The translations under genes were made by a program, and so were the position numbers. A DNA stretch of 64,000 bases from Candidatus Lokiarchaeum ossiferum (GTDB lineage: Archaea; Asgardarchaeota; Lokiarchaeia; Sigyniarchaeales; Promethearchaeaceae), in assembly GCA_025839675.1 (NCBI GenBank), contig CP104013.1:3041121-3105120 (forward strand). The letters are read 5' to 3'. Shown here one piece after another: positions 19,108 to 45,753 of the stretch (positions are counted from its first letter, which is position 1; every line of letters begins with the position of its first letter). The notes under the pieces were generated by a model. It saw nothing but the letters and a program-made list of their open reading frames with translations. It was not told the origin of the DNA and searched no databases.

Positions 19108-19896
19108 CTAAATTAAATTGCGTTTCACAATTTCTTCTACCATAAAAGAGGCAACTGCATCCGCGTACTTCCCAGGACCAAATCCTGCATCAAATCCTAA
19201 CTCCTTAGCAAGATCATTAGTTAAACGGGGACCTCCAGCAATTAAAACAACTTTATCTCGAATTCCTTCTGCTTCAATCAATTCCACAAGTTCAGTAAGG
19301 TTTTGAATATGAACCCCTTTTTGTGTGACTGTCTGGGATACTAACATAACATCTGCTTTCAACTCAATAGCCTTTCTAATAAATTCTTCATTAGGAACTT
19401 GAGCCCCAAGATTATAAGCATCAACCATAGAATAGCGTTCTAAGCCATAATGCCCCATATAACCTTTCATGTTCATGATTGCATCAATTCCAACTGTGTG
19501 AGCATCAGTTCCAGTAGTAGCCCCTACAACAACTACATTTCGTTTGATATTATTTTTAATATATTCATCTGTTTCTTTCATGCTCATGGTTTCTACTTCA
19601 ATAGCTTGAACTTTAATGGCATTATAATCAATAGAAGGAATAGCACTTCCATAGACAACGAAAAAGGTGAATTCCTTATCCAATGCTTCGTGATAAACTA
19701 CATCCGGTTCAAGGAACCCTAATTTCTCAGTATATTGTCGAGCAACTTCAACCGCTTTATCGCCATCTGGTATCGGTAATGTGAAACTTAACTGCACTTT
19801 ACCATCGTTCATTGTATCCCCGTAGGGTTTTAACTTACTTAAATCGAGATGTGTATCAAAATTATGTTTTTTTGAAGAATATAATCCGCCACCCAT
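19108..19896 (-). CDS. kamE: lysine 5,6-aminomutase beta subunit (cobalamin-binding)
   Basis: Rossmann B12-binding domain with a DxHxxG-type motif (TGTDAHTVGID). Abuts kamD with no gap. Confidence 0.8.
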   Translation of the reverse strand: MGGGLYSSKKHNFDTHLDLSKLKPYGDTMNDGKVQLSFTLPIPDGDKAVEVARQYTEKLGFLEPDVVYHEALDKEFTFFVVYGSAIPSIDYNAIKVQAIEVETMSMKETDEYIKNNIKRNVVVVGATTGTDAHTVGIDAIMNMKGYMGHYGLERYSMVDAYNLGAQVPNEEFIRKAIELKADVMLVSQTVTQKGVHIQNLTELVELIEAEGIRDKVVLIAGGPRLTNDLAKELGFDAGFGPGKYADAVASFMVEEIVKRNLI

Positions 19897-21489
19897 TTAA
19901 TTTTCGCCTCCAATATTCAATTCTCTAGCCATTTGTTCCATGAAAGGATTGAAATATTCCTTTTCGCGCAAAGCAACTCCATCAAGACCTTTTCCACCAT
20001 CAATGGGTCGTTTCACACCAGCAAATTTTCCTTGGGATAACGCTTCAAATAAACCTTGCAACTCAATCTCCTTAATTAAGGCGTTTGCTTCTGATAAAAC
20101 TTTCTTGACGCGTTGTTCCATAATTCCCCCTTCTTTGAAAGAAATTTCTGAGCCCAAATCAGCCATATTATTAAAAATATACTTTGCATTCTCAATTGCT
20201 AAGGCGCGATCCTGCATAAATGGTGTGTGAATCGCTTCCGTTAACATACCTAAAAGACAAATTTTTTGATTGGTCATAATTGTGATGGCATTAAACAAAG
20301 TATCTTGGATATGACCTTTGAAAATATTCCCTGTCATAAATTTTGTGGGAGGCATATACTTTAATGGTGCATTTGGAAAGATTTCTCGAGCCATTTGGGC
20401 TTGAGCCAATTCGTAAAGAAAACCATTTTTTATGTTGGGGTTCATTTCAAAAGCATGACCTAACCCCATTTGATTTTCTTGAAGTCCAGCAAGTTTAGCA
20501 AATTGCTCATTGATAAATTGAGAGGTTAAGACAGTATGGGCTTCTTCGAAGGCATCGGAAGTAGTTAAGTAATTATCTTCTCCAGTATTAATTATTACAC
20601 CTGCATAGGCATTAATCATACGTGAGAAATATTGATCGATCATAGTGCGTTTCATATTGATATCCCGAAAAAGAATACCATATAAGGCATCATTTAACAT
20701 CATATCTAGACGTTCAAAAGCACCCATTGCTGCAATTTCTGGCATACATAGTCCCGAACAATAATTAGTTAAGCGAATATAGCGCCCTAATTCTTCCCCA
20801 GTTTCATCCAAAGCTTTTCGCATGATTCTAAAATTTTCTTGTGTAGCATATGTTCCACCAAATCCTTCAGTAGTTGCCCCATATGGAACATAATCTAAGA
20901 GAGATTGTCCTGTAGTTCGGATAACTGCAATTACATCAGCACCTTGTTTAGCAGCGGCTTGAGCTTGAGTAATATCCTCATAGATGTTTCCTGTCGCTAC
21001 AATAACATAAATAAATGGTCCAGATTTATCTCCATATTTCTCAAGCATTTGATTCCTTTTAGAACGATTTTCTTTGATTAATTCCAAGTTATGCTTAACT
21101 ACATCTTGGATGGCTAACCTTATCTCGAAAGTATCATGGGGAGGCAATTTGGTTAAGTCTATTTCCTTTTGGCTTACTTTTTCAGCTATTTCTTGAGGAG
21201 ATAATTTCGTTTCAAGCATTGCGTTTCCAATGAAATAAGCAGCACCAGTTCCTAATCCATTTCCTTGTTTGATATTTTCCACCACAACATTTGGTAAAGG
21301 AACTTCAAAATCATTTATGCCATCAATGCCCATTAATCGACATACAGTCCGCTCAACGGACACAGTAGTATGTTGATCAATGAAATTTTGCATTTCACTT
21401 GCGATTTTCCGGGCAGAATTTCGGGCTTCTTTCACAATTGCAAATTTTAGATGCAATTTACTGTCATTCTGAGTTGTCATATTGATCAT
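19897..21489 (-). CDS. kamD: lysine 5,6-aminomutase alpha subunit (PLP/TIM-barrel)
   Basis: 530 aa. The N-terminus (SKLHLKFAIVKEARNSARKIA...HTTVSVERTVCRLMGIDG) aligns with bacterial KamD as recalled. The start may be the ATG at 21480; either way it overlaps the upstream gene. Confidence 0.85.
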   Translation of the reverse strand: MINMTTQNDSKLHLKFAIVKEARNSARKIASEMQNFIDQHTTVSVERTVCRLMGIDGINDFEVPLPNVVVENIKQGNGLGTGAAYFIGNAMLETKLSPQEIAEKVSQKEIDLTKLPPHDTFEIRLAIQDVVKHNLELIKENRSKRNQMLEKYGDKSGPFIYVIVATGNIYEDITQAQAAAKQGADVIAVIRTTGQSLLDYVPYGATTEGFGGTYATQENFRIMRKALDETGEELGRYIRLTNYCSGLCMPEIAAMGAFERLDMMLNDALYGILFRDINMKRTMIDQYFSRMINAYAGVIINTGEDNYLTTSDAFEEAHTVLTSQFINEQFAKLAGLQENQMGLGHAFEMNPNIKNGFLYELAQAQMAREIFPNAPLKYMPPTKFMTGNIFKGHIQDTLFNAITIMTNQKICLLGMLTEAIHTPFMQDRALAIENAKYIFNNMADLGSEISFKEGGIMEQRVKKVLSEANALIKEIELQGLFEALSQGKFAGVKRPIDGGKGLDGVALREKEYFNPFMEQMARELNIGGEN

Positions 21490-22984
21490 TTTTTTCCATT
21501 TGATTGTATTGATTTTTCGCGTATTTTACAATGTTATCAGTTAATCCAAGCAAAATAGCTATATTAAGAGCATCCTTAGGAACAATGCTGTCATGTTGAA
21601 CGCGTTCCAAACGATAATCCATATGTTCTTGAATAATTTGAATAGATGTATATTTTTGAGAGGATTGAAGGTCAATTTTGTGTTTTAGGGAAAGAAAATC
21701 GACATTTTTTAGTCCCATCACTTGATAATGTGCGAATTTTTTATTAGAAATACCTTCATAGTGTGTAGTTATAAGAGAAATTGCATTTTGGGAGTTTAAA
21801 TACTGGGTTAAAGCCTTGATTAAAATTGTTCCTTCTGACGGATTTGTTCCTCGGGCAAATTCATCCATTACTATGAAGGAAAATTTTTTGGGAAGAGAAG
21901 AAATTATTTGATTAACAGTAATTATCTCAGCTCCAAAAGTGGACAAACCTGCAGAAACATCTTGCATATCATCAGAAACAAAATATAGATTATCAAACAA
22001 GGGGATTTGAACAGATTTTGCAAATACAAAAAATCCATAATGAGCAAGCAGTACATTTAGGAAGAGAGTTTGCAAGGAAACTGTTTTTCCTCCCATATTT
22101 GCGCCAGTGATAATCGTCACTCCCAAATCGAGATCAATTGATATCGGTGTAAATTGCTTTTCTGATTGATTTAAAATCGATTGAACATAAGGATTTATAG
22201 ATCTTTTAATTTTAATACCCTGATTTGAAGAAATCTGAGGTTTAACCCCCCCAAATTCTAAAGCAAGTTTCGCTTTGGAGATCCAAAAATCAAAAAGTCC
22301 TAATTTGGTAATATTGTCCAAATATAGGGTAGTGTATTGCCGAAGTTGAAAGGAAAGGGATTTTTTAACATTAAGTTCTTCTTCGCGTTCTAATATCACT
22401 ACATCTAATCGTTCTTCCTTAAGTTGTTTTATTAACTCCGAATCTTGCGTTTGAAAGATTTTAGTTTCAAGTGATCTCTTCCTTTCACGAATTTTCTGAA
22501 GGGAATCAGAATAAGAATCATAAAGATAAAAAGTAGGAATATTTGTCTGATTTGGATCTAATAAAGAAATTACTTGTTTAAAGGAAGTAAAATCCATTTC
22601 GGGTAGGGATAGGTGCAAACTTTGCACTTTCGAAGAAAAATCCTCAAAATCCATGGCAAATTTCTTTAATTCAAAAATCTCAACTTCATCCAATATTTTC
22701 GTTTCTTGAAGATTTAATAAGGATCGTCGGATATCTCTTAATTTTGGAAGAATATAGTCAATTTTTTTATGGATTGAACTATTTTTTTGAATTGAACTAC
22801 AAAGACATCCAATATTTGAAAGTTCTGTTATTAGAAGCTCCTTTTCAGAAGGGGAGAACCTCCGTAAATTATTTTTCAATTCTTTCCCAAAGGGAGTTAA
22901 AGTATCCAGCTTGTTAAGAAGAAAAGTAAATCCAATAGTATCCAAATTCTCTTGAGTTAGCCCTATCATTTTAATTACCTCCAA
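21464..22984 (-). CDS. MutS-like ABC-type ATPase (MutS domain V only)
   Basis: Walker A ITGANMGGKTVSLQ, Walker B IVMDEF, TTHY motif. No mismatch-binding or connector domains; N-terminal helical region only. Confidence 0.65.
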   Translation of the reverse strand: MEVIKMIGLTQENLDTIGFTFLLNKLDTLTPFGKELKNNLRRFSPSEKELLITELSNIGCLCSSIQKNSSIHKKIDYILPKLRDIRRSLLNLQETKILDEVEIFELKKFAMDFEDFSSKVQSLHLSLPEMDFTSFKQVISLLDPNQTNIPTFYLYDSYSDSLQKIRERKRSLETKIFQTQDSELIKQLKEERLDVVILEREEELNVKKSLSFQLRQYTTLYLDNITKLGLFDFWISKAKLALEFGGVKPQISSNQGIKIKRSINPYVQSILNQSEKQFTPISIDLDLGVTIITGANMGGKTVSLQTLFLNVLLAHYGFFVFAKSVQIPLFDNLYFVSDDMQDVSAGLSTFGAEIITVNQIISSLPKKFSFIVMDEFARGTNPSEGTILIKALTQYLNSQNAISLITTHYEGISNKKFAHYQVMGLKNVDFLSLKHKIDLQSSQKYTSIQIIQEHMDYRLERVQHDSIVPKDALNIAILLGLTDNIVKYAKNQYNQMEKNDQYDNSE

Positions 22985-24029
22985 CTAGATCAAAAATTGG
23001 TAGGGATATTTTACATCTTAAAGTCGAAAGGAATTGCTTCGGATCAAATTCATATCCAAGAGGTGAAAACGGATTAGCAGTTAGGCATAAAATCTTAATG
23101 GGGGAAAGAACTAAAATTTTACCTCCTGTTTTTTCATATTGATACAATATATCCTTTGATAAAAATAATTTTGTACCATCTGCCACCAACAGTGTAAATT
23201 CTTTATATAAAAGAGAGTTTTCCATTAATCTGATGAGCAAATTATCACTTACAGCACCTTTGATAACTAAATATTGCATATCTTTGGATAAAGAATTGAT
23301 TATCTCAAGTTCAGAATCTAAAGCAGTAGTCATCTGAAGATTTTTTACGATCTCATTCTTATCAATAATCCCAACTCGAGAGATCTGTTCAGTCAATTTC
23401 ATAATATGGGGATTTTTTAACTTATCAAAGGAGAGCAATCTCACGGTATGAGCAGTCATTTCAGAAACGGCATCCATATTTCTTGAAAGACTCGCCCCAG
23501 TTGCGAGAATTGTGGCATCAGTGATTGAAGGGGCAGCAAACGTTTTCCGGCTTAAAGCACCATCCACTAAAACAAGTTCACAGCCTAATTTAAGTAATTC
23601 ATTACAGATTTGTGACAGATATTCGGTTTGCGAGGGACCAGCAATCTCAATATATCCATCACTTAAAGCTCGAACAATAATGATTTCTCCCAGTGGAGTT
23701 CCAATACAAGTATTTGCAAGAATTTCTTTGGTGATATCACTTTGCTCTACACATTGTTTAGCAGTAGCGATAATTGTTCCTTTTTCAATATAAATACGGG
23801 GTTTAGCGGTAGCCGTAACAACATCTATGGTTTCTCCATCTCTTCCGATGGAAGTTAACCCTAATTTGTAACGGGTGCGTATTCGTGAAATTATAAAATT
23901 CAGAGTGGTTGTTTTCCCCACATTTTTTTCCATACCAATTATTGAAACTGTTTGATAATGAACAAGCTGTTGGATTATTCGATCAACTTCAAAGTTTTCT
24001 AAGGTATTTCTTGAACTCATAGTTTTCAA
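22971..24029 (-). CDS. P-loop NTPase of unknown function
   Basis: Walker A GMEKNVGKTTT near the N-terminus. Overlaps MutS-like by 14 nt and lies between kamA and the MutS-like gene. Confidence 0.5.
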   Translation of the reverse strand: MKTMSSRNTLENFEVDRIIQQLVHYQTVSIIGMEKNVGKTTTLNFIISRIRTRYKLGLTSIGRDGETIDVVTATAKPRIYIEKGTIIATAKQCVEQSDITKEILANTCIGTPLGEIIIVRALSDGYIEIAGPSQTEYLSQICNELLKLGCELVLVDGALSRKTFAAPSITDATILATGASLSRNMDAVSEMTAHTVRLLSFDKLKNPHIMKLTEQISRVGIIDKNEIVKNLQMTTALDSELEIINSLSKDMQYLVIKGAVSDNLLIRLMENSLLYKEFTLLVADGTKLFLSKDILYQYEKTGGKILVLSPIKILCLTANPFSPLGYEFDPKQFLSTLRCKISLPIFDLVGGN

Positions 24030-24079: not shown

Positions 24080-25348
24080 TTATTCCTTTTTGATATTTCG
24101 TTTGTGGCGTTCAAGATTTGCGGGTTCAATGGTAATGCCTTCCCCATGTTTTCCCTTACTATGAATAAGTCCTGCAACACCTACGAGATGATTGTATTCT
24201 TCCTCATATTCATCATTCACAATTCCGGGTTTATAATTCTCTGGCTCATCATAGCGACAAATAACACCTTCATAATTACGTAGGATCACTTTTTGATTAC
24301 TTTGCGAAATTACGTAATTGGGCATAACTGGAATTTTTCCCCCACCACCAGGTGCATCAACAATGTAAGTGGGAACGCAGAACCCAGAAGTATGCCCGCG
24401 TAAACCTTCCATAATTTCAATTCCCTTAGAGACAGTTGTCCTAAAATTGAGTAAACCTATTGATAAATCACATTGATACACATAATATGGTCTAACACGT
24501 ATTTTCACTAATTCATGCATCAATTTCTTCATGGTATAAACAGAATCATTTACTCCACGAAGCAATACAGATTGATTTCCAAGAGGAATTCCTGAATTTG
24601 CCAACATTGCACATGCTTGTTGAGATTCGGGAGTAATTTCATGAGGATGGTTAAAATGAGTGTTAAGCCATACCGGATGATATTTTTTGATGATATTACA
24701 TAATTCTGGGGTTATTCGTTGCGGCATCACTACGGGAACCCGTGATCCGATCCGAATGATTTCCACATGAGGAATTTCTCTCAGATTTTTAATAATATAT
24801 TCCAAACGAGTATCAGAAACCAAGAGCGCATCCCCTCCCGAGAGCAGAACATCTCTAACTTTAGGATTATTTCGGATATAATCTATCCCTTGATCAATTT
24901 GATCTTGTTTTAACTGTTTGTCATGGTGACCTGCAAATCTTCGGCGGGTACAATGACGGCAATACATAGAACATTGATCAGTAATTAAGAATAGCACACG
25001 GTCAGGATAACGGTGGGTTAACCCTGGTACGGGGGAATCGGTGTCCTCATGTAAAGGATCTTCAATATCAGCATCACATGAGTAAGTTTCGGCAATTGTT
25101 GGTACACTTTGAAGTTTAATTGGATCCATCGGATCATTAGGATCAATCAAAGATAAATAATAAGGAGTAATTGCCATTCTAAATTTTTCAACACAACCCC
25201 GAGCGCTTTCTTCTTCTTCCTTTGTCAATGGCAAAAATGTTTTTAGAGCCTCAACCGACTCAATACGATTCTTCACTTGCCATTTCCAATCGTTCCAGAG
25301 CTCATCTGAAACATCCCCAAACAATTCCGCTCTTCTATTGACTTTCAT
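24080..25348 (-). CDS. kamA: L-lysine 2,3-aminomutase (radical SAM)
   Basis: Radical-SAM CxxxCxxC (CSMYCRHCTRR), LSGGDAL, C-terminal PGGGGK PLP region. 422 aa. Confidence 0.9.
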   Translation of the reverse strand: MKVNRRAELFGDVSDELWNDWKWQVKNRIESVEALKTFLPLTKEEEESARGCVEKFRMAITPYYLSLIDPNDPMDPIKLQSVPTIAETYSCDADIEDPLHEDTDSPVPGLTHRYPDRVLFLITDQCSMYCRHCTRRRFAGHHDKQLKQDQIDQGIDYIRNNPKVRDVLLSGGDALLVSDTRLEYIIKNLREIPHVEIIRIGSRVPVVMPQRITPELCNIIKKYHPVWLNTHFNHPHEITPESQQACAMLANSGIPLGNQSVLLRGVNDSVYTMKKLMHELVKIRVRPYYVYQCDLSIGLLNFRTTVSKGIEIMEGLRGHTSGFCVPTYIVDAPGGGGKIPVMPNYVISQSNQKVILRNYEGVICRYDEPENYKPGIVNDEYEEEYNHLVGVAGLIHSKGKHGEGITIEPANLERHKRNIKKE

Positions 25349-25422: not shown

Positions 25423-26556
25423 TTATACATATTTTTCTTCAAACATTTTTCGAAGAATTGGGCTTTCACGGAGTATTTCGAGCGTGATTTCTGCGTGATC
25501 CTTGCAATATCCATTTCCAATGATCATATTAACATCCTTTCCAACACCTTCAGCACCTAAAGCCGCTTTAGTAAAGCTGGTTGCCATTGAGAAGAAATAC
25601 ACAATTCCATCATCTTTACATGGGAGGATACAAGACATTTCACAATCTGGAACATTTAAACAGTTGATTACAATATCAACTTCTTCGCCGCCAGTTGCTT
25701 CCAATGTTTTTTCATAGATGTCGATAGGACTCTTGGCGTTAGCGATAACAGCTTTATGACAGAATCCATATTCCATCATATATTTAGCACGATCTTCATT
25801 GCGAGCATTTCCCAAAATCAATCCCGTTGGACCTGCACGTTTTCGAGCTTCATAAGCACACATCATCCCAGATTTGCCCGTTGCACCTAGAATTAAAACT
25901 TTTTGACCAGGTTTAACTAATTTTGCAGTTTGAGCAGGAGCCCCAGCAACATCTAAAGCGGCTAAAGCAACAGCTTCACTGAAATCTTCTGGAATTTTAG
26001 AATATATTCCACTTTCAAATAAAATAGCTTTACCAGTAATGTCAGCTCGATCAATATTCATATTCAATTTGTGAATTTTATCAATTCGGAGTGGAGTAAG
26101 GCTTAAACTAACCAATGTAGCGATTTTATCACCAACTTTTAAATCGATTTTCCCTTCTAAGTCTTTTCCAATTTTTTCAACTTTTCCTAATAACATTCCA
26201 CCACTGCCAGTGTCAGGATTTCGATGTTTGCCTTGCATTTCCACAATTTCAAACATTCTTGCTTTCATCTTTTCCTCATCAGCTCCACAGCTTTCTTTAA
26301 TTTGGTGGAAACTTGCGGAATCAATATTTAACGATTGGACGTCAATGAGAATTTCGTTATCGTAAAGAACATCCATGTTGTTGTCGAGTTTATCACAATT
26401 TTGCGGAAGAGCACCTTTGGGTGCAATGACACGGTGTACACCGAATTTTGAACCTTGAACCATTTTTTCTAACTCCAAATAATTCTTCACTCTTTGAGGT
26501 AAGGAATCTAAAAAGTGAATCTTATGAGAATTAAGGTGATGATATATTAAAATCAC
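25423..26556 (-). CDS. kdd: L-erythro-3,5-diaminohexanoate dehydrogenase
   Basis: 377 aa, MDR/Rossmann-like (ILGATGKSG dinucleotide motif); position and size match the Kdd of lysine fermentation clusters. Confidence 0.7.
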   Translation of the reverse strand: MILIYHHLNSHKIHFLDSLPQRVKNYLELEKMVQGSKFGVHRVIAPKGALPQNCDKLDNNMDVLYDNEILIDVQSLNIDSASFHQIKESCGADEEKMKARMFEIVEMQGKHRNPDTGSGGMLLGKVEKIGKDLEGKIDLKVGDKIATLVSLSLTPLRIDKIHKLNMNIDRADITGKAILFESGIYSKIPEDFSEAVALAALDVAGAPAQTAKLVKPGQKVLILGATGKSGMMCAYEARKRAGPTGLILGNARNEDRAKYMMEYGFCHKAVIANAKSPIDIYEKTLEATGGEEVDIVINCLNVPDCEMSCILPCKDDGIVYFFSMATSFTKAALGAEGVGKDVNMIIGNGYCKDHAEITLEILRESPILRKMFEEKYV

Positions 26557-26705: not shown

Positions 26706-28226
26706 ATGTTACAACTTATGGAAAAAGAACGTTCACGACCTCAATTTATCTGGACTATTTTGAAGGAAATCTATGCTCATCCTGATAATTACAAAAAAAA
26801 CCAAGGTAAAATTCATCAACGGATTAAAAAATGGTTGATAAAACGTTCTAATACCTACAATATTCCCCTCAAAATACAGGAAGATTCGATCGGGAATATT
26901 TTTGTAAGAAAACCTGCTCTTTCGGGGTGTGAAAACTACCCTCCCATTTTATTGCAAGCTCACTACGATATTTACGATAAAAAAGAAAGTTCCATTTATG
27001 ATTTCCAGGGTTCATCGATTAGTTTCCAAGAAAAATGGATTGAAATGATAGGAACCCCCATTTTTGATGACTCAATTGTTGGTGTGGCCTTGATTCTTGC
27101 CGTGTTAATTAATAAAAATGAAATTTTTGAACATGGACCGATAGAAGCACTATTTACTGTAAAACGAGATGATAGATTTGTTGGAGCCCTTAATTTGGAT
27201 GTAGATTATTTCAATATTCAAAGCAAATTCTTGTTAAATTTTGATTCAGTAGATTTAGGGGCAATAACAAATGGTACCGCGGGATGTGCAGAGTTTCTTT
27301 ACTCCAAAAAAGCAACACCTATTGATCCAGGCGAGGGCAAGTATCTTACGTTTTACAAGCTTTCGATTTCTGGCTTGAAGGGAGGAGAATTAGGATCAGA
27401 AATACACTTCTTTCGTGCCAATGCAATTAAACTGATCGCCCGAGCACTTTCTTCTTTAAGTGAACACATGCAAATTAACTTAGCAGACTGGTCCGGAGGG
27501 GATCTCTATCGATTTATTCCCCGAAAATCTACGGTTATTTTTGCGGTTCATACTGATGAAGAATTCAAGGTGGAGCAAATTTTAAAAGAAGAAAAGGGAA
27601 CTATCATCAAAAAATATCGCACGTTCACCGAATATGGGTCCAATCTAGAACCTAATTTATGTATTCAGTGGGAAAAAACGAAAGCAAAACCCTATTTTTC
27701 GAAGAAGATCTCAGAATCAGCCATAGCTCTTGCAAATCTCATTCCGCATGGACTAAGTCGGTCATCTTCAGTTGAAAATGAATTTGGACGTATATCTAAT
27801 AATTTTGCCAAGGTAGAGACGACCCGATCAGCAATACGTTTCCATTCAAAATCTCGCGGGGATAATGCGCCTGAATTTAAAGCTTTTAATAGAACTTTAA
27901 TCCAATTGGGTGACCTTGGTGGTTGGAAAGTGAAAAATGATTATACTTTTCCAGTATGGGTGCCGCAAAAAGAGAAGGAATTTCTGAATTTTGTGAAACA
28001 TAAATATGAAGATATTCTCCAAAAACCGATTCGTATTGATAAATTGTATTGGGTATTAGAACCAGGAATAATTGCCAAACAGATTCCGCAGATGCAAGCC
28101 CTCTCAATTGGACCAACCGAAATTGGAGTGTTTCCTGAAAATTATAAAGTCAGTGTCTATGATATTCAAATCCTCTTTCGTCTTCTACGGACAATTCTTA
28201 AGAATCTAAATCAAATCTCAATGTAA
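26706..28226 (+). CDS. M20C-family peptidase, PepD (Xaa-His dipeptidase)-like
   Basis: N-terminus and ILLQAHYDIY align with PepD PVVLQAHLDMV. SGLKGGELGSEIHF resembles the PepD lid-domain GLKGGHSGGEIH. Some metal ligands appear substituted. Confidence 0.6.
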   Translation: MLQLMEKERSRPQFIWTILKEIYAHPDNYKKNQGKIHQRIKKWLIKRSNTYNIPLKIQEDSIGNIFVRKPALSGCENYPPILLQAHYDIYDKKESSIYDFQGSSISFQEKWIEMIGTPIFDDSIVGVALILAVLINKNEIFEHGPIEALFTVKRDDRFVGALNLDVDYFNIQSKFLLNFDSVDLGAITNGTAGCAEFLYSKKATPIDPGEGKYLTFYKLSISGLKGGELGSEIHFFRANAIKLIARALSSLSEHMQINLADWSGGDLYRFIPRKSTVIFAVHTDEEFKVEQILKEEKGTIIKKYRTFTEYGSNLEPNLCIQWEKTKAKPYFSKKISESAIALANLIPHGLSRSSSVENEFGRISNNFAKVETTRSAIRFHSKSRGDNAPEFKAFNRTLIQLGDLGGWKVKNDYTFPVWVPQKEKEFLNFVKHKYEDILQKPIRIDKLYWVLEPGIIAKQIPQMQALSIGPTEIGVFPENYKVSVYDIQILFRLLRTILKNLNQISM

Positions 28227-37200: not shown

Positions 37201-37599
37201 AAGAAAATTCTCGATAAATGAGAGATAAACCATCGAATTATTTATGATCCCTGAAAAATGATCCAAAATCTCTTGATAAATTGGCTTTAATTCAAATAAT
37301 TCATTGTTTTTAAAATGGAGAAGAAATATAAAAGAAATGATATTTCTGTTGTCTAAATATCTTTCATCCATGAAACTGATAATAGAAGCAAATTCTACCA
37401 ATTGAATATAATTGTCCTTGTAATTCGAATGAAGATGGATAGATTCACTCAATAATAACCCAAAGTTTTTTTGAAAATTAGAAATTTCATTAGGATCACT
37501 ATGAAATAAAATATTTTTAAAAATGAAATTAGGAATTCTTTCGAATAGAAGCTCATATTTTGAGATATATTGAAGATATTTTTCGTATAAAATTCCCAT
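34279..37599 (-). CDS. large (1106 aa) low-complexity N/K/I/F-rich hypothetical protein
   Basis: A 3.3-kb stop-free frame in AT-rich DNA is unlikely by chance. No recognisable domain. Its 3' end overlaps kal convergently by 15 nt. Confidence 0.5.
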
Positions 37600-38463: not shown

Positions 38464-39708
38464 ATGGTAGAAAAATTAAAACTTGAAAAATCCGAACAAT
38501 ATTACAAAGAAGCTCTTGAAGTAATTCCAGGTGCCATTTTGGGAATACGTAGACCCTATAATTTTGTTGTAGGTGAATATCCTATCTTTTTTGAAAGCGC
38601 TGATGGTGGAAAAGTGAAAGATGTTGATGGAAATGAATATATCGATATGCTTTGTGCATATGGACCTATTATCATAGGGCATAAGGAAAAAGAGATTGAT
38701 GATGCAGTTATTGCTCAGATACAGAATAAAGGATTCTGTTTCTCCCTTACCCAAGAAATCCAAAATAAACTGGCAAAAAAACTTACCGAATTGATCCCAT
38801 CATGTGAAAAAAGTGTGTTTGTGAAAACAGGATCAGACGCAACCACAACGGCAGTTAGAGTCGCACGAGGATATACAGATCGAACAAAAATTTTGCGCTG
38901 TGGCTATCATGGATGGCATGATTGGTGTGTAGAAGTAAAGGGTGGAGTTCTCCCAAAGACTTATGAGGATGTAATCGAATTTGAATATAACAATTTAGAG
39001 CAGGTAAAAGAATTATTTGAAAAGTATGGACCTGAAATAGCTGGAGTTATCATTACTCCAGTAGGACACCCTCTTGCACATGAAGTAGAGATGCCAAAAC
39101 AGGGATTTTTGGAAGGTATTCGAGAGATTACAGAAAAAAATGGAACTGTACTCATTTTTGATGAGATTCGGAGCGGATTTCGAGTGAATTTGGGCGGAGC
39201 CCAAAAAGAATTTGGAGTTACACCCGATATGTCCGTCTTTGGGAAAGCGATTGCCAATGGCTATCCTATTGGTGTGGTGGTAGGTAAAAGCGAATTTATG
39301 GATGTATTAGCAGACAAAGTGTTTTTAAGTTCCACATTCTTCCCAAACAGTTTGGCTCAAGTCGCTGCGCTGAAAACCATTGAAATTATGGAACGAGATA
39401 AGATTTTGGATGTGATCAGAGAAAAAGGGACAAAATTCGGAGCTATGATTGAAAAAATCATCAAAGAAAGCGGAATTGCGTGTACTTTTTCCGGTGCTCC
39501 TTGGATGCCCTTTATCACCTTTGATCATGATCCTAACAAGTTATATAAGAAATTGCGGAATGAATTCTATACCCGTTTAATCCGTCGAGGTGTTTTCCTC
39601 CAACCATATCATCATGGTTACATTGCTTACCGTCATTCCGAGGAGGATTTAGAATATGTGGCAAAAGTTATCAAAGAATCTCTAGAAGAATTAAAACAAT
39701 TTCTATAA
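38464..39708 (+). CDS. class-III aminotransferase of the glutamate-1-semialdehyde 2,1-aminomutase (HemL) family; candidate acyl-CoA beta-transaminase (Kat-like) or hemL
   Basis: VIPGAILG...DVDGNEYID...TGSDATTTAVRVARGYT...GYHGWHD...IFDEIRSGFRV...FGKAIANGYPIG (PLP-Lys in FGK) is colinear with HemL. The ATG at 38464 lies 6 nt after SD GAGGTGA; the track's 38455 is a GTG. Confidence 0.75.
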   Translation: MVEKLKLEKSEQYYKEALEVIPGAILGIRRPYNFVVGEYPIFFESADGGKVKDVDGNEYIDMLCAYGPIIIGHKEKEIDDAVIAQIQNKGFCFSLTQEIQNKLAKKLTELIPSCEKSVFVKTGSDATTTAVRVARGYTDRTKILRCGYHGWHDWCVEVKGGVLPKTYEDVIEFEYNNLEQVKELFEKYGPEIAGVIITPVGHPLAHEVEMPKQGFLEGIREITEKNGTVLIFDEIRSGFRVNLGGAQKEFGVTPDMSVFGKAIANGYPIGVVVGKSEFMDVLADKVFLSSTFFPNSLAQVAALKTIEIMERDKILDVIREKGTKFGAMIEKIIKESGIACTFSGAPWMPFITFDHDPNKLYKKLRNEFYTRLIRRGVFLQPYHHGYIAYRHSEEDLEYVAKVIKESLEELKQFL

Positions 39709-39819: not shown

Positions 39820-40641
39820 ATGGAAAAATTGATCATAACCGCAGCGATAAGCGGTGCAGAAGTGATGAAGGAACATAACCCAGCGGTTCCATACACAATT
39901 GAAGAAATTGGAAGAGAAGCAGAATCAGCCTATAAAGCGGGAGCAAGTATCATTCATTTACATGTGCGAAATGATGATGGAACTCCTACCCAAGATAAAG
40001 CACGATTTCAAGCTTGTATGGAGGAAATTCGAAAACGTTGCTCAGATGTTATAATCCAACCTTCGACCGGTGGGGCAGTAGGAATGACCGATGATGAACG
40101 TTTACAACCGACAGAGTTATCTCCAGAAATGGCCACCCTCGATTGTGGAACCTGTAATTTTGGAGGGGATGATATTTTTGTCAATTCAGAAAACACCATT
40201 AAAAATTTCGCCATAAAGATAAAAGAACGCGGAATCAAACCCGAATGCGAATGTTTTGAAAAGGGACATATTGACATGGCCATTAAAATGCACAAGAAAG
40301 GATTGATTGATGCCCCAATGCACTTTAATATGGTGTTAGGAGTTTCAGGAGCAATGAGTGCCACCCCTCGAGATTTGACGTTTATGGTAGATAGTATTCC
40401 TTTGGGCTCAACCTTCACTGTATGCGCGATGGGGCGATATCAAATGCAAATGGCCGCAATTTCAATAGTACTCGGCGGACATGTTCGAGTGGGTTTTGAG
40501 GACAATGTCTATATTTCTCGAGGAGTGCTCGCCAAATCAAATGGAGAATTGGTGGAAAAAGCAGTTAGAATTGCAAAAGAGTTAGGGCGAGAAATTGCAA
40601 CTCCTGCCGAAACTCGAAAAATACTGGGATTAGTAAAGTAA
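39820..40641 (+). CDS. kce: 3-keto-5-aminohexanoate cleavage enzyme (BKACE/DUF849 TIM barrel)
   Basis: IITAAISGAE...IIHLHVRNDDG...PSTGGAVG...RVGFEDN with zinc ligands H-H-E conserved. Near-colinear with bacterial Kce as recalled. Confidence 0.8.
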   Translation: MEKLIITAAISGAEVMKEHNPAVPYTIEEIGREAESAYKAGASIIHLHVRNDDGTPTQDKARFQACMEEIRKRCSDVIIQPSTGGAVGMTDDERLQPTELSPEMATLDCGTCNFGGDDIFVNSENTIKNFAIKIKERGIKPECECFEKGHIDMAIKMHKKGLIDAPMHFNMVLGVSGAMSATPRDLTFMVDSIPLGSTFTVCAMGRYQMQMAAISIVLGGHVRVGFEDNVYISRGVLAKSNGELVEKAVRIAKELGREIATPAETRKILGLVK

Positions 40642-40647
40642 AAAAAA

Positions 40648-42297
40648 TTATAAGATTTCAATTTTTTGGCGATTTTTTGATGAATAAGACTTTTTCTTCT
40701 TATTCCCATTTCGATTCTTACGTCTTTTGGATTTAGCTAAATTAGTTGAACCACTCCGTTTTGGGGCTTCACTCACTTTTAAGGTAGAAGCTCGTTTAGG
40801 AGAAGAACTTCGTTTAGGAGCAACACTTACTTTTGGAGCATTTGAATTACTTGGAGGCGCCATTCCTTTTGGAGCATCATTCTTTTTGTAAGCATCAGAG
40901 CGTTTCGACCCATTATTTCGTTTTGGAGCTTCGCTTCGCTTAGGATTACCACTTCGTTGTGAAAAACTCTTTCTCTTTGGGAAATTAGAAGGAGAGGATT
41001 TATTACGTCTCTGTTTAGACCCATTTCGGTTTTTGCGGCGATCAGATTTTGCTTTGTTGGGGGATTTTTTCGTATCAGGAGTGGTAAACCATTCTGGGAC
41101 TTCAGGTTTTTCAATTTTAGGAAGCACTACTTTATTAGTTGGATCATCAACCGAACGACGTTCTATATCATACTTCAATAATTTTTCAATTTTGAACATT
41201 AACTCCCGTTGATTCATGGCAACAATAGACACGGCTTTTCCATTGTCAACATTTTTCTCAATACCTGCAGTTCGGGCAGTTCTTCCAATTCGATGAACAT
41301 AATCTTCTGGATCGCGAGGTAAATCATAGTTGAACACATGAGATACTTTTGGAAAATCCAAACCTCGGGCAAGGACATTAGTAGCAACTAAACAATTTAA
41401 TTTATGTTCCCGGAATTTAGCGACTGTTTCTTCACGCTTTGCCTGTGTTAAATCACCGTGAATAAAACCCGCTTTAAGATTAAAGTTAAGACCAAGCTCC
41501 GCATTCAATCTACGGCAAAGTTCTTGGGTTTTACGTTTAGTTTTAGTAAAGATTATGGAAAACTCAGGAAGTTCATTATTTAAGATTTTCACAAAATTCC
41601 AGAACTTATTTTTATCAACGTAATAAGCATATTGATCACAATTTTCGACAGTTAAGGAATCTTTACTCACATCAATTTCATGAACAGTATCATTTTTCGT
41701 AAATTTATAAATCAATTTTTTAATTTCTTCCAACAATGTGGCCGAAAATAGGAATAATCGAGGTGAGACATTACGCATGGCATCCAACAATAGAAAGCGG
41801 ATATCCGGGAAGAATCCCATATCAAGCATTCGATCTGCTTCATCCAACGCAACGAAGTTAACACATTTAAAATTCACTTCTCCTTGGCGGACTAAATCAA
41901 TTAACCGTCCAGGAGTGGCAACTAATACTTGGCCCCCATTTTTAATTTGCTCGATTTGGAGACGAATCGAAGCTCCGCCATACACTTCTACGATTTTGAC
42001 TTTTTTATACGTGGTGATGGAACGGAACACTGAGGCATTTTGTTTGCATAATTCCCGAGTAGGAACTAAGATGACTGCTTGGATATGACGATTTTTCAAA
42101 TCAATTTTTTCAATGATGGGGATCGCAAAGGCTAAAGTTTTCCCAGATCCTGTTTTTGCTTGACCTATAACATGGGATTTTCGTATAGAAAGCCCGTGGG
42201 GAATGCTTTTTTCTTGGATTTCGGTTGGAGAAGCAATGTGATTGTCTTCTAGCGCCCGAATAATTTTTGGACTAATGTCCATTTCTTTAAATAACAT
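40648..42297 (-). CDS. DEAD-box ATP-dependent RNA helicase with C-terminal basic low-complexity tail
   Basis: Q-motif, AKTGSGKT, PTRELC, DEAD (LDEADRML), SAT, HRIGRTAR. The C-terminal 170 aa is rich in K/R/S/N/P with APKR(S/N) repeats. Confidence 0.85.
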   Translation of the reverse strand: MLFKEMDISPKIIRALEDNHIASPTEIQEKSIPHGLSIRKSHVIGQAKTGSGKTLAFAIPIIEKIDLKNRHIQAVILVPTRELCKQNASVFRSITTYKKVKIVEVYGGASIRLQIEQIKNGGQVLVATPGRLIDLVRQGEVNFKCVNFVALDEADRMLDMGFFPDIRFLLLDAMRNVSPRLFLFSATLLEEIKKLIYKFTKNDTVHEIDVSKDSLTVENCDQYAYYVDKNKFWNFVKILNNELPEFSIIFTKTKRKTQELCRRLNAELGLNFNLKAGFIHGDLTQAKREETVAKFREHKLNCLVATNVLARGLDFPKVSHVFNYDLPRDPEDYVHRIGRTARTAGIEKNVDNGKAVSIVAMNQRELMFKIEKLLKYDIERRSVDDPTNKVVLPKIEKPEVPEWFTTPDTKKSPNKAKSDRRKNRNGSKQRRNKSSPSNFPKRKSFSQRSGNPKRSEAPKRNNGSKRSDAYKKNDAPKGMAPPSNSNAPKVSVAPKRSSSPKRASTLKVSEAPKRSGSTNLAKSKRRKNRNGNKKKKSYSSKNRQKIEIL

Positions 42298-42442: not shown

Positions 42443-43126
42443 TTAAGCGGTGATGGGGGAACCATCATCCATTCGTTTAAGTTGGGGTGACACTTGATAA
42501 TCAGCTTCCGTATATTTACGAATTTCGTCCAGCGAAGAATCTTTCTGAATTTCTTTTAAAATCAAACCTTGGGGTGTTACTTCAAATAAACCAAATTCGG
42601 TAATGATTTTATCAACAACTTTAGCTCCAGTGAGCGGTAAAGAACATTTTTTCAAAATTTTTGGGGATCCTTTGGCTGTATGGAACATAGCAACAATAAC
42701 TTGCTTAGCCCCTGTCACGAGATCCATTGCCCCACCCATCCCCGGAATAAATTTTCCCGGAACGGCCCAATTTGCCAAATTTCCCTCTTGATCTACTTCA
42801 AAAGCGCCCAAAATGGTGGAATCCAAATGACCTCCACGAACTATTCCAAAGGAGGTTGGACTGTCAAAATAAGAACCATAATCTTCAATGGTGACATAAA
42901 CACCACCAGCATTAGTCAAGTCTTTATCAATAGCTTCTGAAGGAGCATCTGCACCCATCCCAACCAACCCATTTTCGGAATGGAAAATGACATTAACATC
43001 CTTAGATATAAATTGAGGGACCATCATGGGAACTCCAAAACCTAAATTGACGACTTGGCCATCCTTTAATTCTTTAGCTACACGCTTGGCAATAACAATG
43101 TTGGCTTCTTTTCTGTCGTTGATCAC
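42443..43126 (-). CDS. atoA: 3-oxoacid/acetate CoA-transferase subunit B
   Basis: SENGLVGMG catalytic-Glu motif; 227 aa; start overlaps subunit A stop. Confidence 0.8.
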   Translation of the reverse strand: MINDRKEANIVIAKRVAKELKDGQVVNLGFGVPMMVPQFISKDVNVIFHSENGLVGMGADAPSEAIDKDLTNAGGVYVTIEDYGSYFDSPTSFGIVRGGHLDSTILGAFEVDQEGNLANWAVPGKFIPGMGGAMDLVTGAKQVIVAMFHTAKGSPKILKKCSLPLTGAKVVDKIITEFGLFEVTPQGLILKEIQKDSSLDEIRKYTEADYQVSPQLKRMDDGSPITA

Positions 43127-43782
43127 TATGCAACAACTCCTTCTATGATATAATTAACAAAAATGCCTGGGGTATGAACAATATCTTTGTCAATTTCGCC
43201 GACTTTTACTAATTCTTGAGCTTCGCATATTGTGATATCAGCAGCCATTGCTACAGTAGGATTATAATTTCGGGTAGATTTGCTGTAAAAGACATTTCCG
43301 AACTCATCAACCTTGGTACCTTTGATAATTGCCAAATCGGCTCTCAATGGCGGTTCTAAAATGAATTCTTGTCCATCGACTGATATTTTTTGTTTACCTT
43401 CTTCAACAGGAGTACCAATTCCAGTTGGGGTTAAAATACCCCCTAAACCAAATCCTTGGGCTCGAATCTTTTCAATCAAAGTTCCCTGTGGATAAAATTC
43501 AACTTCCATAAGTCCTGCATTGAGGCATCGTTTAGATTCAGGATTGGTTCCAACGTGGGAACATATAACTTTTTTAATGATACCTTTGCCAACCAAGCGG
43601 CCAACACCGCGATCTGGAAAGGCAGTATCATTGACAATAATAGTAAGATCTTTTAATTTTAATTCCATAATAAGATCGATTAGTCGTTCAGGCGCTCCAC
43701 AGCCTAAAAATCCACCAACCATGATAGTCATACCATCTTTAAAGAGAGGCTTTATCGTTTCTAAATCAACAACTTTTTTCAT
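43126..43782 (-). CDS. atoD: 3-oxoacid/acetate CoA-transferase subunit A
   Basis: GMTIMVGGFLGCGAPE N-terminal motif of family I CoA-transferase alpha; 218 aa. Confidence 0.8.
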   Translation of the reverse strand: MKKVVDLETIKPLFKDGMTIMVGGFLGCGAPERLIDLIMELKLKDLTIIVNDTAFPDRGVGRLVGKGIIKKVICSHVGTNPESKRCLNAGLMEVEFYPQGTLIEKIRAQGFGLGGILTPTGIGTPVEEGKQKISVDGQEFILEPPLRADLAIIKGTKVDEFGNVFYSKSTRNYNPTVAMAADITICEAQELVKVGEIDKDIVHTPGIFVNYIIEGVVA

Positions 43783-44028: not shown

Positions 44029-44466
44029 TTACTTTTGAGGTTCAAATCCAACGTCCCATCGATATAAGGGATTGCCTTCTTTGTCAACACCGATTTCAGC
44101 TCTCAAAAATGTGACTTGAACAGCCATGTCAATTGTAATTTTATCTGGTTGAGTTTCATCAACCCCAATCAATTGTCCCGCCACACTGGGTCCTTCTTCC
44201 ATCTGACAGACAGCAAAGACGTAAGGTTTCTTCCGATTATAACCTTTATCCATCATAGCCTTGGACCCTACATATATCGAAGAGAAGGTTTTAAGTGCAC
44301 CTTTTCCCGATAATTCGATCCATTCAGCTTCCGATAAACATTCAGAGCAAAGTCTTCGGGGAGGTAAATCAATCTGATTGCAATGAGGACATTTTGAAGC
44401 CATCAACTTTTTTTCGGCAAGATATTTAAAATAATTGTTAACAGTGATCATATTTTCGTTTGACAT
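44029..44466 (-). CDS. DUF35 zinc-ribbon/OB-fold protein (thiolase-HMGCS scaffold)
   Basis: CPHCNQIDLPPRRLCSECL rubredoxin-like Zn ribbon followed by an OB fold. Immediately downstream of the thiolase. Confidence 0.7.
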   Translation of the reverse strand: MSNENMITVNNYFKYLAEKKLMASKCPHCNQIDLPPRRLCSECLSEAEWIELSGKGALKTFSSIYVGSKAMMDKGYNRKKPYVFAVCQMEEGPSVAGQLIGVDETQPDKITIDMAVQVTFLRAEIGVDKEGNPLYRWDVGFEPQK

Positions 44467-44478
44467 AATAAAACACTC

Positions 44479-45753
44479 CTATAGTTTCTCCTTAGTCATG
44501 ATGGTGACCGTGGCTGTAGCCCCTGATCCACCCAAATTTTGAGCAAGCCCTACTTTTAAATCACCTTGAACTTGCCGATTTCGTTCGGCTTTTCCTGCAA
44601 GTTGTTTATAGATTTCCACAATTTGAGAAGCCCCTGTTGCACCCACAGGATGACCTTTAGTTTTTAGGCCTCCACTAGTATTAATGGGCCGTTTTCCATC
44701 CCGCTTGGTTTCCCCATTTGCAATAGCTTTAACAGCTTCACCAGGTTTATAAAAACCAAGATCTTCAAGAGCAACTAATTCAGCAATGGTGAAACAATCA
44801 TGAACTTCAGCAATTTGGATATCTTCTGGTGTTAACCCAGCCATATCATACGCTTGTCGAGCTGCTTCTTTGGTAGCATCAAAAGTGGTCAATTTTCCAT
44901 CTTTGCGATCATGCAAACTGAGAGAAGCGCTTCCTTGTCCAATACCACTTACCCAAATCGGATGATCGGTGAATTTATAAGCTAGTTCTTCCGAAGCTAA
45001 AAATATAATGGCTGCTCCATCTGTCACTAAGCTACAATCAAAGAGACGTAAAGGAGAAGCAATCATGGGATTTTTGGATGATTCTAGAAACTCGTATTCA
45101 TCCTTCCAATTTGGAACAGGTTGGCCGCGTTTTTTCGCTTTTTCAATCGCTTTAGCCATAACTTCAGGAATGGTGCTTTGAACATGCGCAAACGGATTTT
45201 CCTTTCCATTTTCATAATTTTTTATTGCTATATTCATAAGATCTTTAGAAGTGGTTCCATATTTATGAAAATGTGCCGTGGCGACTGCAGCATAAAGTCC
45301 TGGAAAAGTGGCCCCTGCATAATATTCATAGGTTGTATCAGCAGCAGCAGCTAAGGCACTGGTCACCCCTGCCGTATTAAGCTCATTCATTTGTTCCACC
45401 CCTCCAACACAAACCACATCATTCATCCCTGAAGCAATACTCATTACAGCATGACGGAAAGCAATTCCACTACTGGCACAAGCCGCTTCAAACCGAGAAG
45501 ATGGTTTTGGAGAGAGTCCAATTAAATTTGCCATTAAAGGAGCTAGATGCCCTTGATGATTAAACAAATCAGCAGTAAAATTACCCAAAAAGAGCTCATC
45601 AATATCTTCAGGTTTAATTCCCTTATCAGTTAATTTAACCGCTTCTAACCATGCTTCCTGCCACATGTCTATCATACGCATTTTTGGATAATTAAACCCG
45701 AATTTTGACATTCCGGCTCCAACAATTGCAACTTTTCGTGCTAGTTTTCCCAT
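44479..45753 (-). CDS. acetyl-CoA C-acetyltransferase (archaeal SCP-x-type thiolase)
   Basis: Thiolase-fold Cys (FEAACASSGIAF) and C-terminal catalytic His/Cys region (EVHDCFT...GHPVGATG). Confidence 0.8.
   Translation of the reverse strand: MGKLARKVAIVGAGMSKFGFNYPKMRMIDMWQEAWLEAVKLTDKGIKPEDIDELFLGNFTADLFNHQGHLAPLMANLIGLSPKPSSRFEAACASSGIAFRHAVMSIASGMNDVVCVGGVEQMNELNTAGVTSALAAAADTTYEYYAGATFPGLYAAVATAHFHKYGTTSKDLMNIAIKNYENGKENPFAHVQSTIPEVMAKAIEKAKKRGQPVPNWKDEYEFLESSKNPMIASPLRLFDCSLVTDGAAIIFLASEELAYKFTDHPIWVSGIGQGSASLSLHDRKDGKLTTFDATKEAARQAYDMAGLTPEDIQIAEVHDCFTIAELVALEDLGFYKPGEAVKAIANGETKRDGKRPINTSGGLKTKGHPVGATGASQIVEIYKQLAGKAERNRQVQGDLKVGLAQNLGGSGATATVTIMTKEKL

Follow-up and report, generated by a model that had tools for sequence, protein, structure and literature searches.

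Does Candidatus Lokiarchaeum ossiferum possess a working route for the fermentation of lysine, and where did such a route come from? The question is raised by one stretch of its genome, 64,000 nt of CP104013.1 (called the window here; all coordinates refer to it), in which 22 substantial open reading frames (ORFs) lie within 19108-45753. A first-pass annotation, made from the sequence alone, had placed kamA, kamD, kamE, kdd, kce, kal, an acyl-CoA dehydrogenase (ACAD), a short-chain dehydrogenase/reductase (SDR), the CoA-transferase subunits A and B, and a thiolase in this 27-kb interval. All of these were found there through ORFs and through Pfam and NCBIfam scans, in which curated equivalog or subfamily cut-offs decided membership. 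It is likely (with a probability of about 0.82) that Lokiarchaeum ossiferum holds a working, bacterial-type lysine fermentation neighbourhood of the 3,5-diaminohexanoate kind, with a core that was acquired early and a kal gene that arrived later. Models of eukaryogenesis depend on what Asgard archaea feed on and on the electrons that they pass to partners. For one of the few strains in culture, the window sets out a concrete catabolic route that can be tested, and the lysine route in it is bacterial in origin.

Eight proteins score above curated NCBIfam equivalog cut-offs, KamA, KamB, KamC, KamD, KamE, Kdd, Kce, and Kal, and the resemblance therefore goes beyond the family level. KamA (24080-25348, minus strand; TIGR03820, 625 bits versus a cut-off of 525) is assigned as lysine 2,3-aminomutase, a radical S-adenosylmethionine (SAM) and pyridoxal phosphate (PLP) enzyme, and aligns over its full length to that of Clostridium subterminale (PDB 2A5H, 695 bits). 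It keeps CSMYCRHC (CxxxCxxC; aa 126-133, 24950-24973) and GGGGK with the PLP lysine (24335-24349). KamD (19897-21489, minus strand) scores 924 bits against NF052384 (cut-off 600) and 903 bits against Pfam Lys-AminoMut_A. KamE (19108-19896, minus strand; NF052385, 394 versus 280) scores 407 bits against PDB 8T0V and 393 against 1XRS, and keeps both DAHTVG (DxHxxG; aa 131-136, 19489-19506) and NMKGY with the PLP lysine (19459-19473). Kdd (25423-26463, minus strand; NF052381, 261 versus 200), the predicted L-erythro-3,5-diaminohexanoate dehydrogenase, is 65-72% identical to bacterial Kdd. Its longest ORF (377 aa from a GTG, to 26556) is too long; the homologues have about 346 residues and start at ORF residue 32-35, and an ATG at codon 32 gives a protein of 346 aa. 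Kce (39820-40641, plus strand; NF052387, 448 versus 382; Pfam BKACE, 367 bits) matches the Cloacimonas Kce structure PDB 2Y7D with 258 bits, and HLH (aa 46-48, 39955-39963) and GFEDN (aa 225-229, 40492-40506) are aligned to it. The His, His, and Glu residues of these two motifs are presumably the zinc ligands of that structure. The residues and families that had been singled out for checking beforehand were thus all recovered, with the KamA, KamE, and Kce motifs intact and Kdd, Kce, and Kal in the right families.

Between kamA and kamD lie the reactivase genes, as in bacterial loci. These are kamC (21464-22984, minus strand; NF052383, 548 versus 300), which encodes a MutS-like ATPase with a MutS_V domain, and kamB (22971-24029, minus strand; NF052386, 409 versus 210), which has no Pfam match. 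The first-pass annotation had recorded an ATPase beside the MutS-like gene; the gene is real, and its product is KamB, the partner subunit of the reactivase. As assigned by sequence, KamA would convert L-lysine to beta-lysine, and KamDE, kept active by KamBC, would convert beta-lysine to 3,5-diaminohexanoate. Kdd would then oxidize and deaminate this compound to 3-keto-5-aminohexanoate, on which the Kce step would follow. The upper lysine pathway, so predicted, is complete, bacterial in type, and catalytically intact as judged by its motifs. A role in the breakdown of ornithine or D-ornithine was considered and rejected, as the OraE model gives 145-152 bits against a cut-off of 800. Two further observations concern these proteins. 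Divergence is much faster in the reactivase subunits than in the enzymes that depend on them; relative to Candidatus Harpocratesius repetitus and an uncultured archaeon (L018), identity is 44% for KamB and 36-39% for KamC, compared with 78-79% for KamD, and both subunits are nearer to a bacterial contig (L035; 51% for KamB and 46% for KamC) than to other Lokiarchaeia. Two tandem or nearby copies of kdd, each 57-61% identical to Kdd of the window, are found in Elusimicrobia (L011, L013, L015-L017, and L019) and in Burkholderiales (L010).

There are two known exits from this upper pathway. The first is Kal (33856-34293, plus strand; NF052388, 201 versus 160). It shows 85-92% identity to its counterparts in Clostridium aciditolerans, Clostridium frigidicarnis, and other Clostridia, and it matches beta-alanyl-CoA ammonia-lyase (PDB 4MTU) with 95 bits. 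No Asgard Kal outside of Lokiarchaeum was found among its best 120 matches. The second is a class-III aminotransferase (38464-39708, plus strand) adjoining kce, which the first-pass annotation had left out of the pathway as HemL-like. HemL models match it best, but below their cut-offs (295 versus 398 and 289 versus 527), and solved HemL structures give only 241 bits; the PLP lysine is kept. Among Cloacimonadota, Bacteroidales, and Elusimicrobia it has counterparts of 71-75% identity. These include homologues at 71-73% in metagenome-assembled genomes of Cloacimonadota and Bacteroidales and, at 72-75%, proteins that JGI labels as 3-aminobutanoyl-CoA transaminase. In lysine clusters without kal, a HemL-like gene encodes Kat, the 3-aminobutyryl-CoA aminotransferase, which turns 3-aminobutyryl-CoA and 2-oxoglutarate into acetoacetyl-CoA and glutamate (Perret et al., 2011). 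Kat activity is reported for both Cloacimonas and a Bacteroidetes genome, and the two enzymes are about 65% identical (Perret et al., 2011). The aminotransferase of the window probably belongs to this Kat group, and both known exits, Kal and Kat, would therefore be present in the window.

How unusual this is can be seen from a scan for Kdd across species-representative genomes, which gave 33 loci onto which the proteins of the window were mapped by tblastn. The kat candidate adjoins kce in the window and in four other Asgard loci, and it is also found inside bacterial clusters. In 10 loci, a kat-type gene shares synteny with kce or the kam genes, and kal is missing from all of these. Taking the 32 other loci together, kat is present in 10, kal in 15, and both in none. 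Among the loci compared, the two genes occur together in Lokiarchaeum only, that is, in the window and in L036, a 73-kb metagenome contig of a related species. Strong purifying selection acts on both genes, with a ratio of nonsynonymous to synonymous substitution (dN/dS) between the two Lokiarchaeum species of 0.089 for Kal and 0.022 for the Kat candidate; the ratios for Kal, Kat, Kce, ACAD, SDR, PepD, and Lrp all lie at 0.02-0.09. Kal and Kat have also been described in Thaumarchaeota, without the upper pathway (Kerou, 2021).

Each exit would have its own balance. Through Kal, 3-aminobutyryl-CoA would give crotonyl-CoA and NH3, and by our own stoichiometry the route would be redox-balanced, with lysine going to acetate, butyrate, and 2 NH3. 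Through the Kat-type enzyme, 3-aminobutyryl-CoA would give acetoacetyl-CoA, with glutamate formed alongside, and by the same reckoning lysine and 4 H2O would give 3 acetate, 2 NH3, and 2 H2. Two pairs of reducing equivalents would be released, and the acetyl-CoA available for ATP synthesis would be roughly doubled. Such a Kat route would be well suited to this culture, in which H2-consuming partners have been reported. A tentative proposal, with the odds somewhat against it, is that both exits are kept as a redox valve, by which the organism could change from growth without a partner to syntrophy, and back, depending on the H2 pressure, and that this valve was assembled by two transfers, first of the core with kat and then of kal from Clostridiaceae-like bacteria. 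If so, the Kal route would re-oxidize the NAD(P)H made by Kdd by reducing crotonyl-CoA to butyrate. In the Kat route, glutamate dehydrogenase would regenerate 2-oxoglutarate, all of the carbon would end up in acetate, and the reducing equivalents would have to leave as H2 or formate to the partner.

The origin of the core can be read from its identities. The first-pass annotation had described a bacterial-type lysine pathway in an archaeal genome, and this holds; the host is an Asgard archaeon, and the core enzymes are 67-75% identical to Clostridia-like bacterial ones. Against contig L035, the values are 74% for KamD, 72% for KamE, 71% for Kce, 68% for KamA, 67% for Kdd, and 92% for Kal. Between Lokiarchaeum and Harpocratesius, flanking genes that are inherited vertically (HflX, P-type ATPase, and PepD) reach no more than 44-54% identity. 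The core is thus more alike across domains than these genes are within Lokiarchaeia, and horizontal transfer is therefore required, as it is for Kal with its 85-92%. The trees that were built are bootstrapped neighbor-joining (NJ) trees, distance-based and midpoint-rooted, with 23-31 taxa chosen by similarity to the query and with MK-D1 left out. In these, a clade of Lokiarchaeum, Harpocratesius, and L018 has 83-100% support for KamA, KamC, KamD, KamE, Kdd, and Kce, and only 26% for KamB and Kat. Concatenation of KamA, KamD, KamE, and Kdd gives 100% support for the same clade, and all Asgard sequences, including AMARA_1, then group together with 70% support, nested among bacteria. With midpoint rooting, the Asgard clade stands beside Clostridia (Proteiniclasticum, Peptostreptococcaceae, and Filifactoraceae), and Elusimicrobia, Holophagaceae, and Burkholderiales are further out. 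These results fit a single old transfer of the core from a bacterium to Lokiarchaeia. The core, kamEDCBA-kdd with kat-kce, would have been acquired from Clostridia-like bacteria by a common ancestor of the Lokiarchaeum, Harpocratesius, and Prometheoarchaeum lineages.

The kal gene appears to have a different history. When Kal identity was regressed on KamD, KamE, Kdd, Kce, or KamA identity over pairs of bacterial loci, about 72-79% was predicted for the window and L035, and 92% was observed. This is 13-20 points above expectation, with z-values of +2.8 to +6.2 that are rough, as the pairs are non-independent. At the DNA level, kal is only 74% identical to L035, the closest bacterial contig, and its transfer was therefore not very recent. 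Probably kal entered the Lokiarchaeum lineage separately from the core and later than it.

The arrangement of the genes points to insertion. The order kdd-kamA-kamB-kamC-kamD-kamE is identical in more than 20 bacterial loci and in L035, which bears out the colinearity with bacterial clusters that had been noted for this block. The nearest genomes are Harpocratesius (L002; Kdd 86% identical), L018 (Kdd 88%), and Promethearchaeota HM1_B6_4. In these, a compact version is found, HflX, aminotransferase, kce, Lrp, PepD, kdd, kamA, kamB, kamC, kamD, and kamE, followed in L018 by the P-type ATPase. PepD (26706-28226, plus strand), an M20 dipeptidase-like protein with 264 bits against TIGR01893 (under the cut-off of 344), is syntenic in Harpocratesius and L018 at 49% identity and has a dN/dS of 0.035. 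The Lrp/AsnC-family gene (28248-28748, minus strand; Pfam HTH_AsnC-type and AsnC_trans_reg), which had rightly been noted among the lysine genes, is kept beside PepD and Kce in the same two genomes (50-54% identity). A backbone of M1 peptidase, P-type ATPase, the cluster, tRNA-Ser, and HflX is common to Harpocratesius, L018, and MK-D1; in the window these genes lie at 12373-14850 (M1 peptidase), 15336-18281 (P-type ATPase), and 47861-49243 (HflX), with tRNA-Ser(GCT) at 45929-46014 (minus strand), just outside of the interval.

Two blocks separate the window from the compact backbone, the first with ACAD, SDR, MVP, CARF, kal, and the orphan, and the second with DEAD, ctfB, ctfA, DUF35, thiolase, tRNA-Ser, and HMGCS. 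Local inversions separate them as well. The genes that had been said to interrupt the module are real, namely the MVP-like gene (31178-32833, minus strand; MVP shoulder, 91.6 bits, and Vault repeats), an orphan of 1106 aa (34279-37599, minus strand; 26% GC; no Pfam, NCBIfam, or PADLOC match), and a DEAD-box helicase (40648-42297, minus strand). Since the same backbone carries two inserted blocks, unrelated genes would have been inserted into a conserved cluster in Lokiarchaeum, and the cluster would not have been scattered. Of the old acquisition followed by dispersal that was first suggested, the acquisition stands by its identities and trees, and the dispersal gives way to a backbone with insertions and a separate kal. 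The inserted block was also considered as a defence island, and this was rejected; PADLOC matched only the CARF-type regulator and, for the DEAD-box protein, generic helicase models, and the orphan and the MVP-like protein matched nothing.

Three known systems can be compared with the window. The nearest is Candidatus Prometheoarchaeum syntrophicum MK-D1, for which Supplementary Table 4 of Imachi et al. (2020) lists, under lysine degradation, kamA, kamD, kamE, kdd, kce, and kal as well as CoA-transferase, enoyl-CoA hydratase, Bcd, and EtfAB, with an expression value for each. MK-D1 (DSAG12_00552-00557, 00568, and 00569) shares KamA, KamD, KamE, Kdd, Kce, and Kal with the window, and its MutS2-like and hypothetical genes correspond to those of KamC and KamB. 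It also shares the backbone of M1 peptidase, P-type ATPase, kamE-to-kdd, kce, tRNA-Ser, HflX, a transcription factor (49250-49849 in the window), and a decarboxylase (51084-52337). Unlike in the window, kce and kal are adjacent in MK-D1, no HemL-like gene is listed beside them, and the genes for CoA-transferase, Bcd, enoyl-CoA hydratase, and thiolase form a cluster of their own elsewhere (DSAG12_00079-00085). The stretch between kdd and kce holds saccharopine dehydrogenase, serine dehydratase, and others in MK-D1, whereas in the window it holds ACAD, SDR, MVP, the CARF regulator, kal, and the orphan.

The canonical bacterial cluster is of the Fusobacterium nucleatum and Clostridium sticklandii type (Kreimeyer, 2007, as summarized in Perret, 2011). 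It is represented here by L035, where kal-kce-ctfAB-kdd-kamABCDE-thiolase forms one compact, co-directional operon ending in a bacterial thiolase. The window shares with it the order from kdd to kamE and the presence of kal, kce, and ctfAB, but differs in having about 15 kb of unrelated archaeal genes inside, kce and kal apart, an extra Kat-type gene, and an archaeal-type thiolase. The Kat variant, known from Cloacimonas acidaminovorans and a Bacteroidetes digester genome (Perret et al., 2011), resembles the window in having a HemL-like aminotransferase beside the lysine genes and an AtoAD-type CoA-transferase. This variant is defined by kat replacing kal; the window is unlike it in that kal is also present. 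Among relatives within Lokiarchaeia, Harpocratesius, L018, and AMARA_1 fit the pure Kat variant within the approximately 21 kb examined.

Downstream of the two exits, the assignments are less firm. ACAD (28866-30119, minus strand) has only the middle and C-terminal ACAD domains in Pfam, and its best NCBIfam score is 127 bits, where curated models have cut-offs of 400 bits or more. Against butyryl-CoA dehydrogenase (BCD; PDB 1BUC) it scores 110 bits, with IGGS where BCD has YEGT, the site of the catalytic Glu of the Bcd/MCAD type. It does carry a Glu in VAERD, a position which we take to be that of the catalytic base in enzymes of the isovaleryl-CoA dehydrogenase (IVD) type. With a dN/dS of 0.023, this divergent protein is probably active, but it is no canonical Bcd; it is a possible crotonyl-CoA reductase. 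SDR (30142-30990, minus strand; Pfam adh_short, 152 bits) is below every NCBIfam cut-off (124 versus 302 for the acetoacetyl-CoA reductase model), and is possibly a 3-hydroxybutyryl-CoA or acetoacetyl-CoA oxidoreductase. ACAD and SDR were absent from all of the other mapped loci except for the Lokiarchaeum contigs L001 and L036.

CoA-transferase subunits B (42443-43126, minus strand; TIGR02428, 286 versus 244) and A (43126-43782, minus strand; TIGR02429, 207 versus 128.5) are better supported. Subunit A narrowly misses the AtoD equivalog (285 versus 315), and CtfA and CtfB are 59% and 61% identical to CtfAB inside the bacterial lysine cluster of L035. The pair is of the AtoAD/CtfAB type, with a putative specificity for butyryl-CoA or acetyl-CoA:acetoacetate. 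CtfAB would activate acetoacetate, and acetoacetyl-CoA may be split by the neighbouring archaeal thiolase.

That thiolase (44479-45753, minus strand; Pfam Thiolase_C_1) passes only a generic archaeal thiolase domain model (NF004720, 443 versus 420), and it scores 405 against a cut-off of 600 for the model of the Methanothermococcus thermolithotrophicus enzyme. It adjoins a DUF35 gene (44029-44466, minus strand; zinc ribbon and OB fold, Pfam zf-ChsH2 and OB_ChsH2_C), and an HMG-CoA synthase (HMGCS) homologue (46176-47798, plus strand, just outside of the interval) lies about 400 bp away across tRNA-Ser. The three form a mevalonate-pathway trio, and the role of the thiolase in the lysine pathway is therefore ambiguous. 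Its primary role may be in the synthesis of isoprenoid lipids, and as an acetoacetyl-CoA thiolase it is possibly common to the mevalonate pathway and lysine breakdown. The archaeal complex of thiolase, HMG-CoA synthase, and DUF35 from Methanothermococcus thermolithotrophicus (PDB 6ESQ) is like the window in having DUF35 and thiolase adjacent and HMGCS near, with 123 bits from the HMGCS-like protein to chain I. This protein is unlike the archaeal enzyme in its length of 540 aa, about 190 aa longer, and in its divergent transcription. It diverges from tRNA-Ser(GCT) and the DUF35-thiolase pair, and solved HMGCS structures match mainly its residues 8-260.

The first-pass annotation had taken these genes to cover every step to acetate, butyrate, and ammonia. 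Neither EtfAB nor an acetate-forming enzyme was found in the window, which together with the divergent ACAD speaks against that claim. Also absent from it are canonical Bcd, crotonase, glutamate dehydrogenase, and an ATP-forming enzyme, including Pta/Ack and ADP-forming acetyl-CoA synthetase. Crotonyl-CoA could be reduced by the divergent ACAD or by canonical Bcd/Etf encoded elsewhere in the genome, and ATP would be formed from acetyl-CoA by an enzyme encoded outside of the window. Peptides may be supplied by PepD and M1 peptidases. The Lrp/AsnC protein is a candidate amino-acid-responsive regulator of the cluster and may control the gene set.

A fuller version of the pathway has nevertheless to be weighed, in which all of the listed genes, including ACAD, SDR, and thiolase, are dedicated to lysine, every step is covered, and a single old transfer was followed by dispersal. 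The genes do lie close together within 27 kb, two Lokiarchaeum species retain ACAD and SDR next to the Lrp gene, with both under purifying selection, and CtfAB and a thiolase belong to bacterial lysine clusters such as that of L035. However, ACAD and SDR reach no curated cut-off, ACAD is without the Glu of the Bcd type, and the two genes do not accompany the cluster in any of 33 other loci, Harpocratesius included, apart from the Lokiarchaeum contigs. The gaps at Etf and at the acetate-forming step, the archaeal type of the thiolase with its DUF35 partner and HMG-CoA synthase neighbour, the differing history of kal, and the backbone with insertions all make this version doubtful. A thiolase is present, as had been reported; its place as a dedicated member does not follow, and ACAD, SDR, and thiolase should not be counted as proven members of the pathway.

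It is improbable that only the Kat route serves lysine, in a syntrophic and H2-releasing manner to acetate, with Kal acting on another substrate such as beta-alanyl-CoA or being a recent passenger. In the close relatives Harpocratesius, L018, and AMARA_1, the stretch up to about 10 kb from the cluster contains kat and lacks kal, kal of the window belongs to an inserted block and has a low-GC orphan as its neighbour, and the only solved relative of Kal is a beta-alanyl-CoA ammonia-lyase. Yet Kal passes the equivalog cut-off for the 3-aminobutyryl-CoA lyase, its 85-92% identity is to Kal inside bacterial lysine clusters, its dN/dS of 0.089 indicates purifying selection, and in MK-D1 kal is directly beside kce.

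KamA could also be thought to make beta-lysine mainly as a compatible solute, like AblA in methanogens. TIGR03820 is named lys_2_3_AblA and covers osmolyte enzymes as well, and the organism comes from brackish sediment. This is very unlikely, as no AblB-type acetyltransferase was found in the window, kamA is flanked by kdd and kamB just as in bacterial catabolic clusters, and KamA scores 695 bits against the clostridial enzyme. Contamination or a chimeric assembly, which the very high identity to Clostridia (that of Kal above all) might suggest, can be excluded for practical purposes, since the same arrangement is present in two closed Lokiarchaeum ossiferum genomes and in the independent metagenome contig L036, the genes are interleaved with others typical of Asgard archaea (MVP, the archaeal thiolase/DUF35/HMGCS set, and a Ras GTPase), the rest of the window also has a longin-like protein of this kind, GC and third-codon-position GC (GC3) are typical of the window, and kal DNA is as distant from its closest bacterial contig as noted above.

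A working lysine fermentation with an early core and a later kal is thus the preferred explanation, and several points weigh against it. KamDE require adenosylcobalamin. Much of the lower pathway is missing from the window, and the comparisons of the Kat candidate are with homologues of the characterized Cloacimonas enzyme. The trees of the core are distance-based, with taxa picked by similarity and MK-D1 omitted, and the regression for kal runs over non-independent pairs. The description of Lokiarchaeum ossiferum only mentions that it probably ferments peptides and does not discuss a lysine route. The same paper reports growth on casein hydrolysate and "single amino acids," H2-consuming partners, and an origin in brackish sediment.

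Much of this gene content is already on record. Ten ORFs are exact protein matches to entries of Lokiarchaeum ossiferum B-35 (UYP46301-UYP46322); KamE is UYP46301 and KamD is UYP46302, both exactly, and in RefSeq kamD starts three codons later. The aminotransferase is likewise 100% identical to a Lokiarchaeum ossiferum protein. In the original deposit, KamE is named a glutamate mutase sigma subunit, KamD, Kal, and Kce are hypothetical proteins, and the aminotransferase is HemL. Correct names for the genes that were mis-named or unnamed there are already in RefSeq and UniRef. Full-text literature searches found no main-text discussion of these genes in Asgard archaea; the table of Imachi et al. 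(2020) was the one place where the pathway turned up. With the pathway listed for the sister genus and most genes already named in RefSeq, the central claim therefore adds little. What is new is incremental, namely "HemL" as a probable Kat, the two exits together, the apparent separate arrival of kal, and the doubtful membership of ACAD, SDR, and thiolase. The identical arrangement is found in a second Lokiarchaeum ossiferum genome (6.27 Mb) and in L036.

An Rfam scan of the window at gathering thresholds gave two tRNAs only, with no riboswitches or other RNAs. A k-mer search of 12 upstream and intergenic regions of the cluster for a shared regulatory motif gave nothing above shuffled controls.

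The neighbouring genes have features of their own. The CARF/wHTH gene (32950-33681, plus strand; PADLOC CARF3, 105.6 bits) has a synonymous divergence (dS) of 0.05 and a dN/dS of 0.57 from its counterpart in L036 (9095-9826), with neighbours at dS 0.5-1.8 and dN/dS 0.02-0.09. These values suggest that this gene alone was exchanged or converted recently, or that its nucleotide sequence is itself constrained. The 1106-aa orphan is rich in Asn, Lys, Ile, and Phe. Its counterpart in L036 (11258-14635) has 1125 aa, is 29% identical, and lies on the opposite strand relative to kal, and the flanking genes are 88-97% identical. The MVP-like gene inside the lysine neighbourhood is kept at 90% identity in the related species, and earlier work has described MVP homologues from Asgard archaea (PMC12962969).

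Between the P-type ATPase and kamE, the window has an ADP-ribosylglycohydrolase (18272-19045, minus strand), which L018 lacks at that place. Pfam matches none of nine further ORFs of 240-590 aa (359-1669, 1810-2532, 2654-3493, 3640-4443, 4993-5736, 9186-10952, 11356-12297, 59156-59980, and 61861-62712). There is a weak longin-domain match at 50377-51030 (minus strand). A Ras-family small GTPase fused to C-terminal zinc ribbons is encoded at 59987-61753 (minus strand; Ras, 186 bits).

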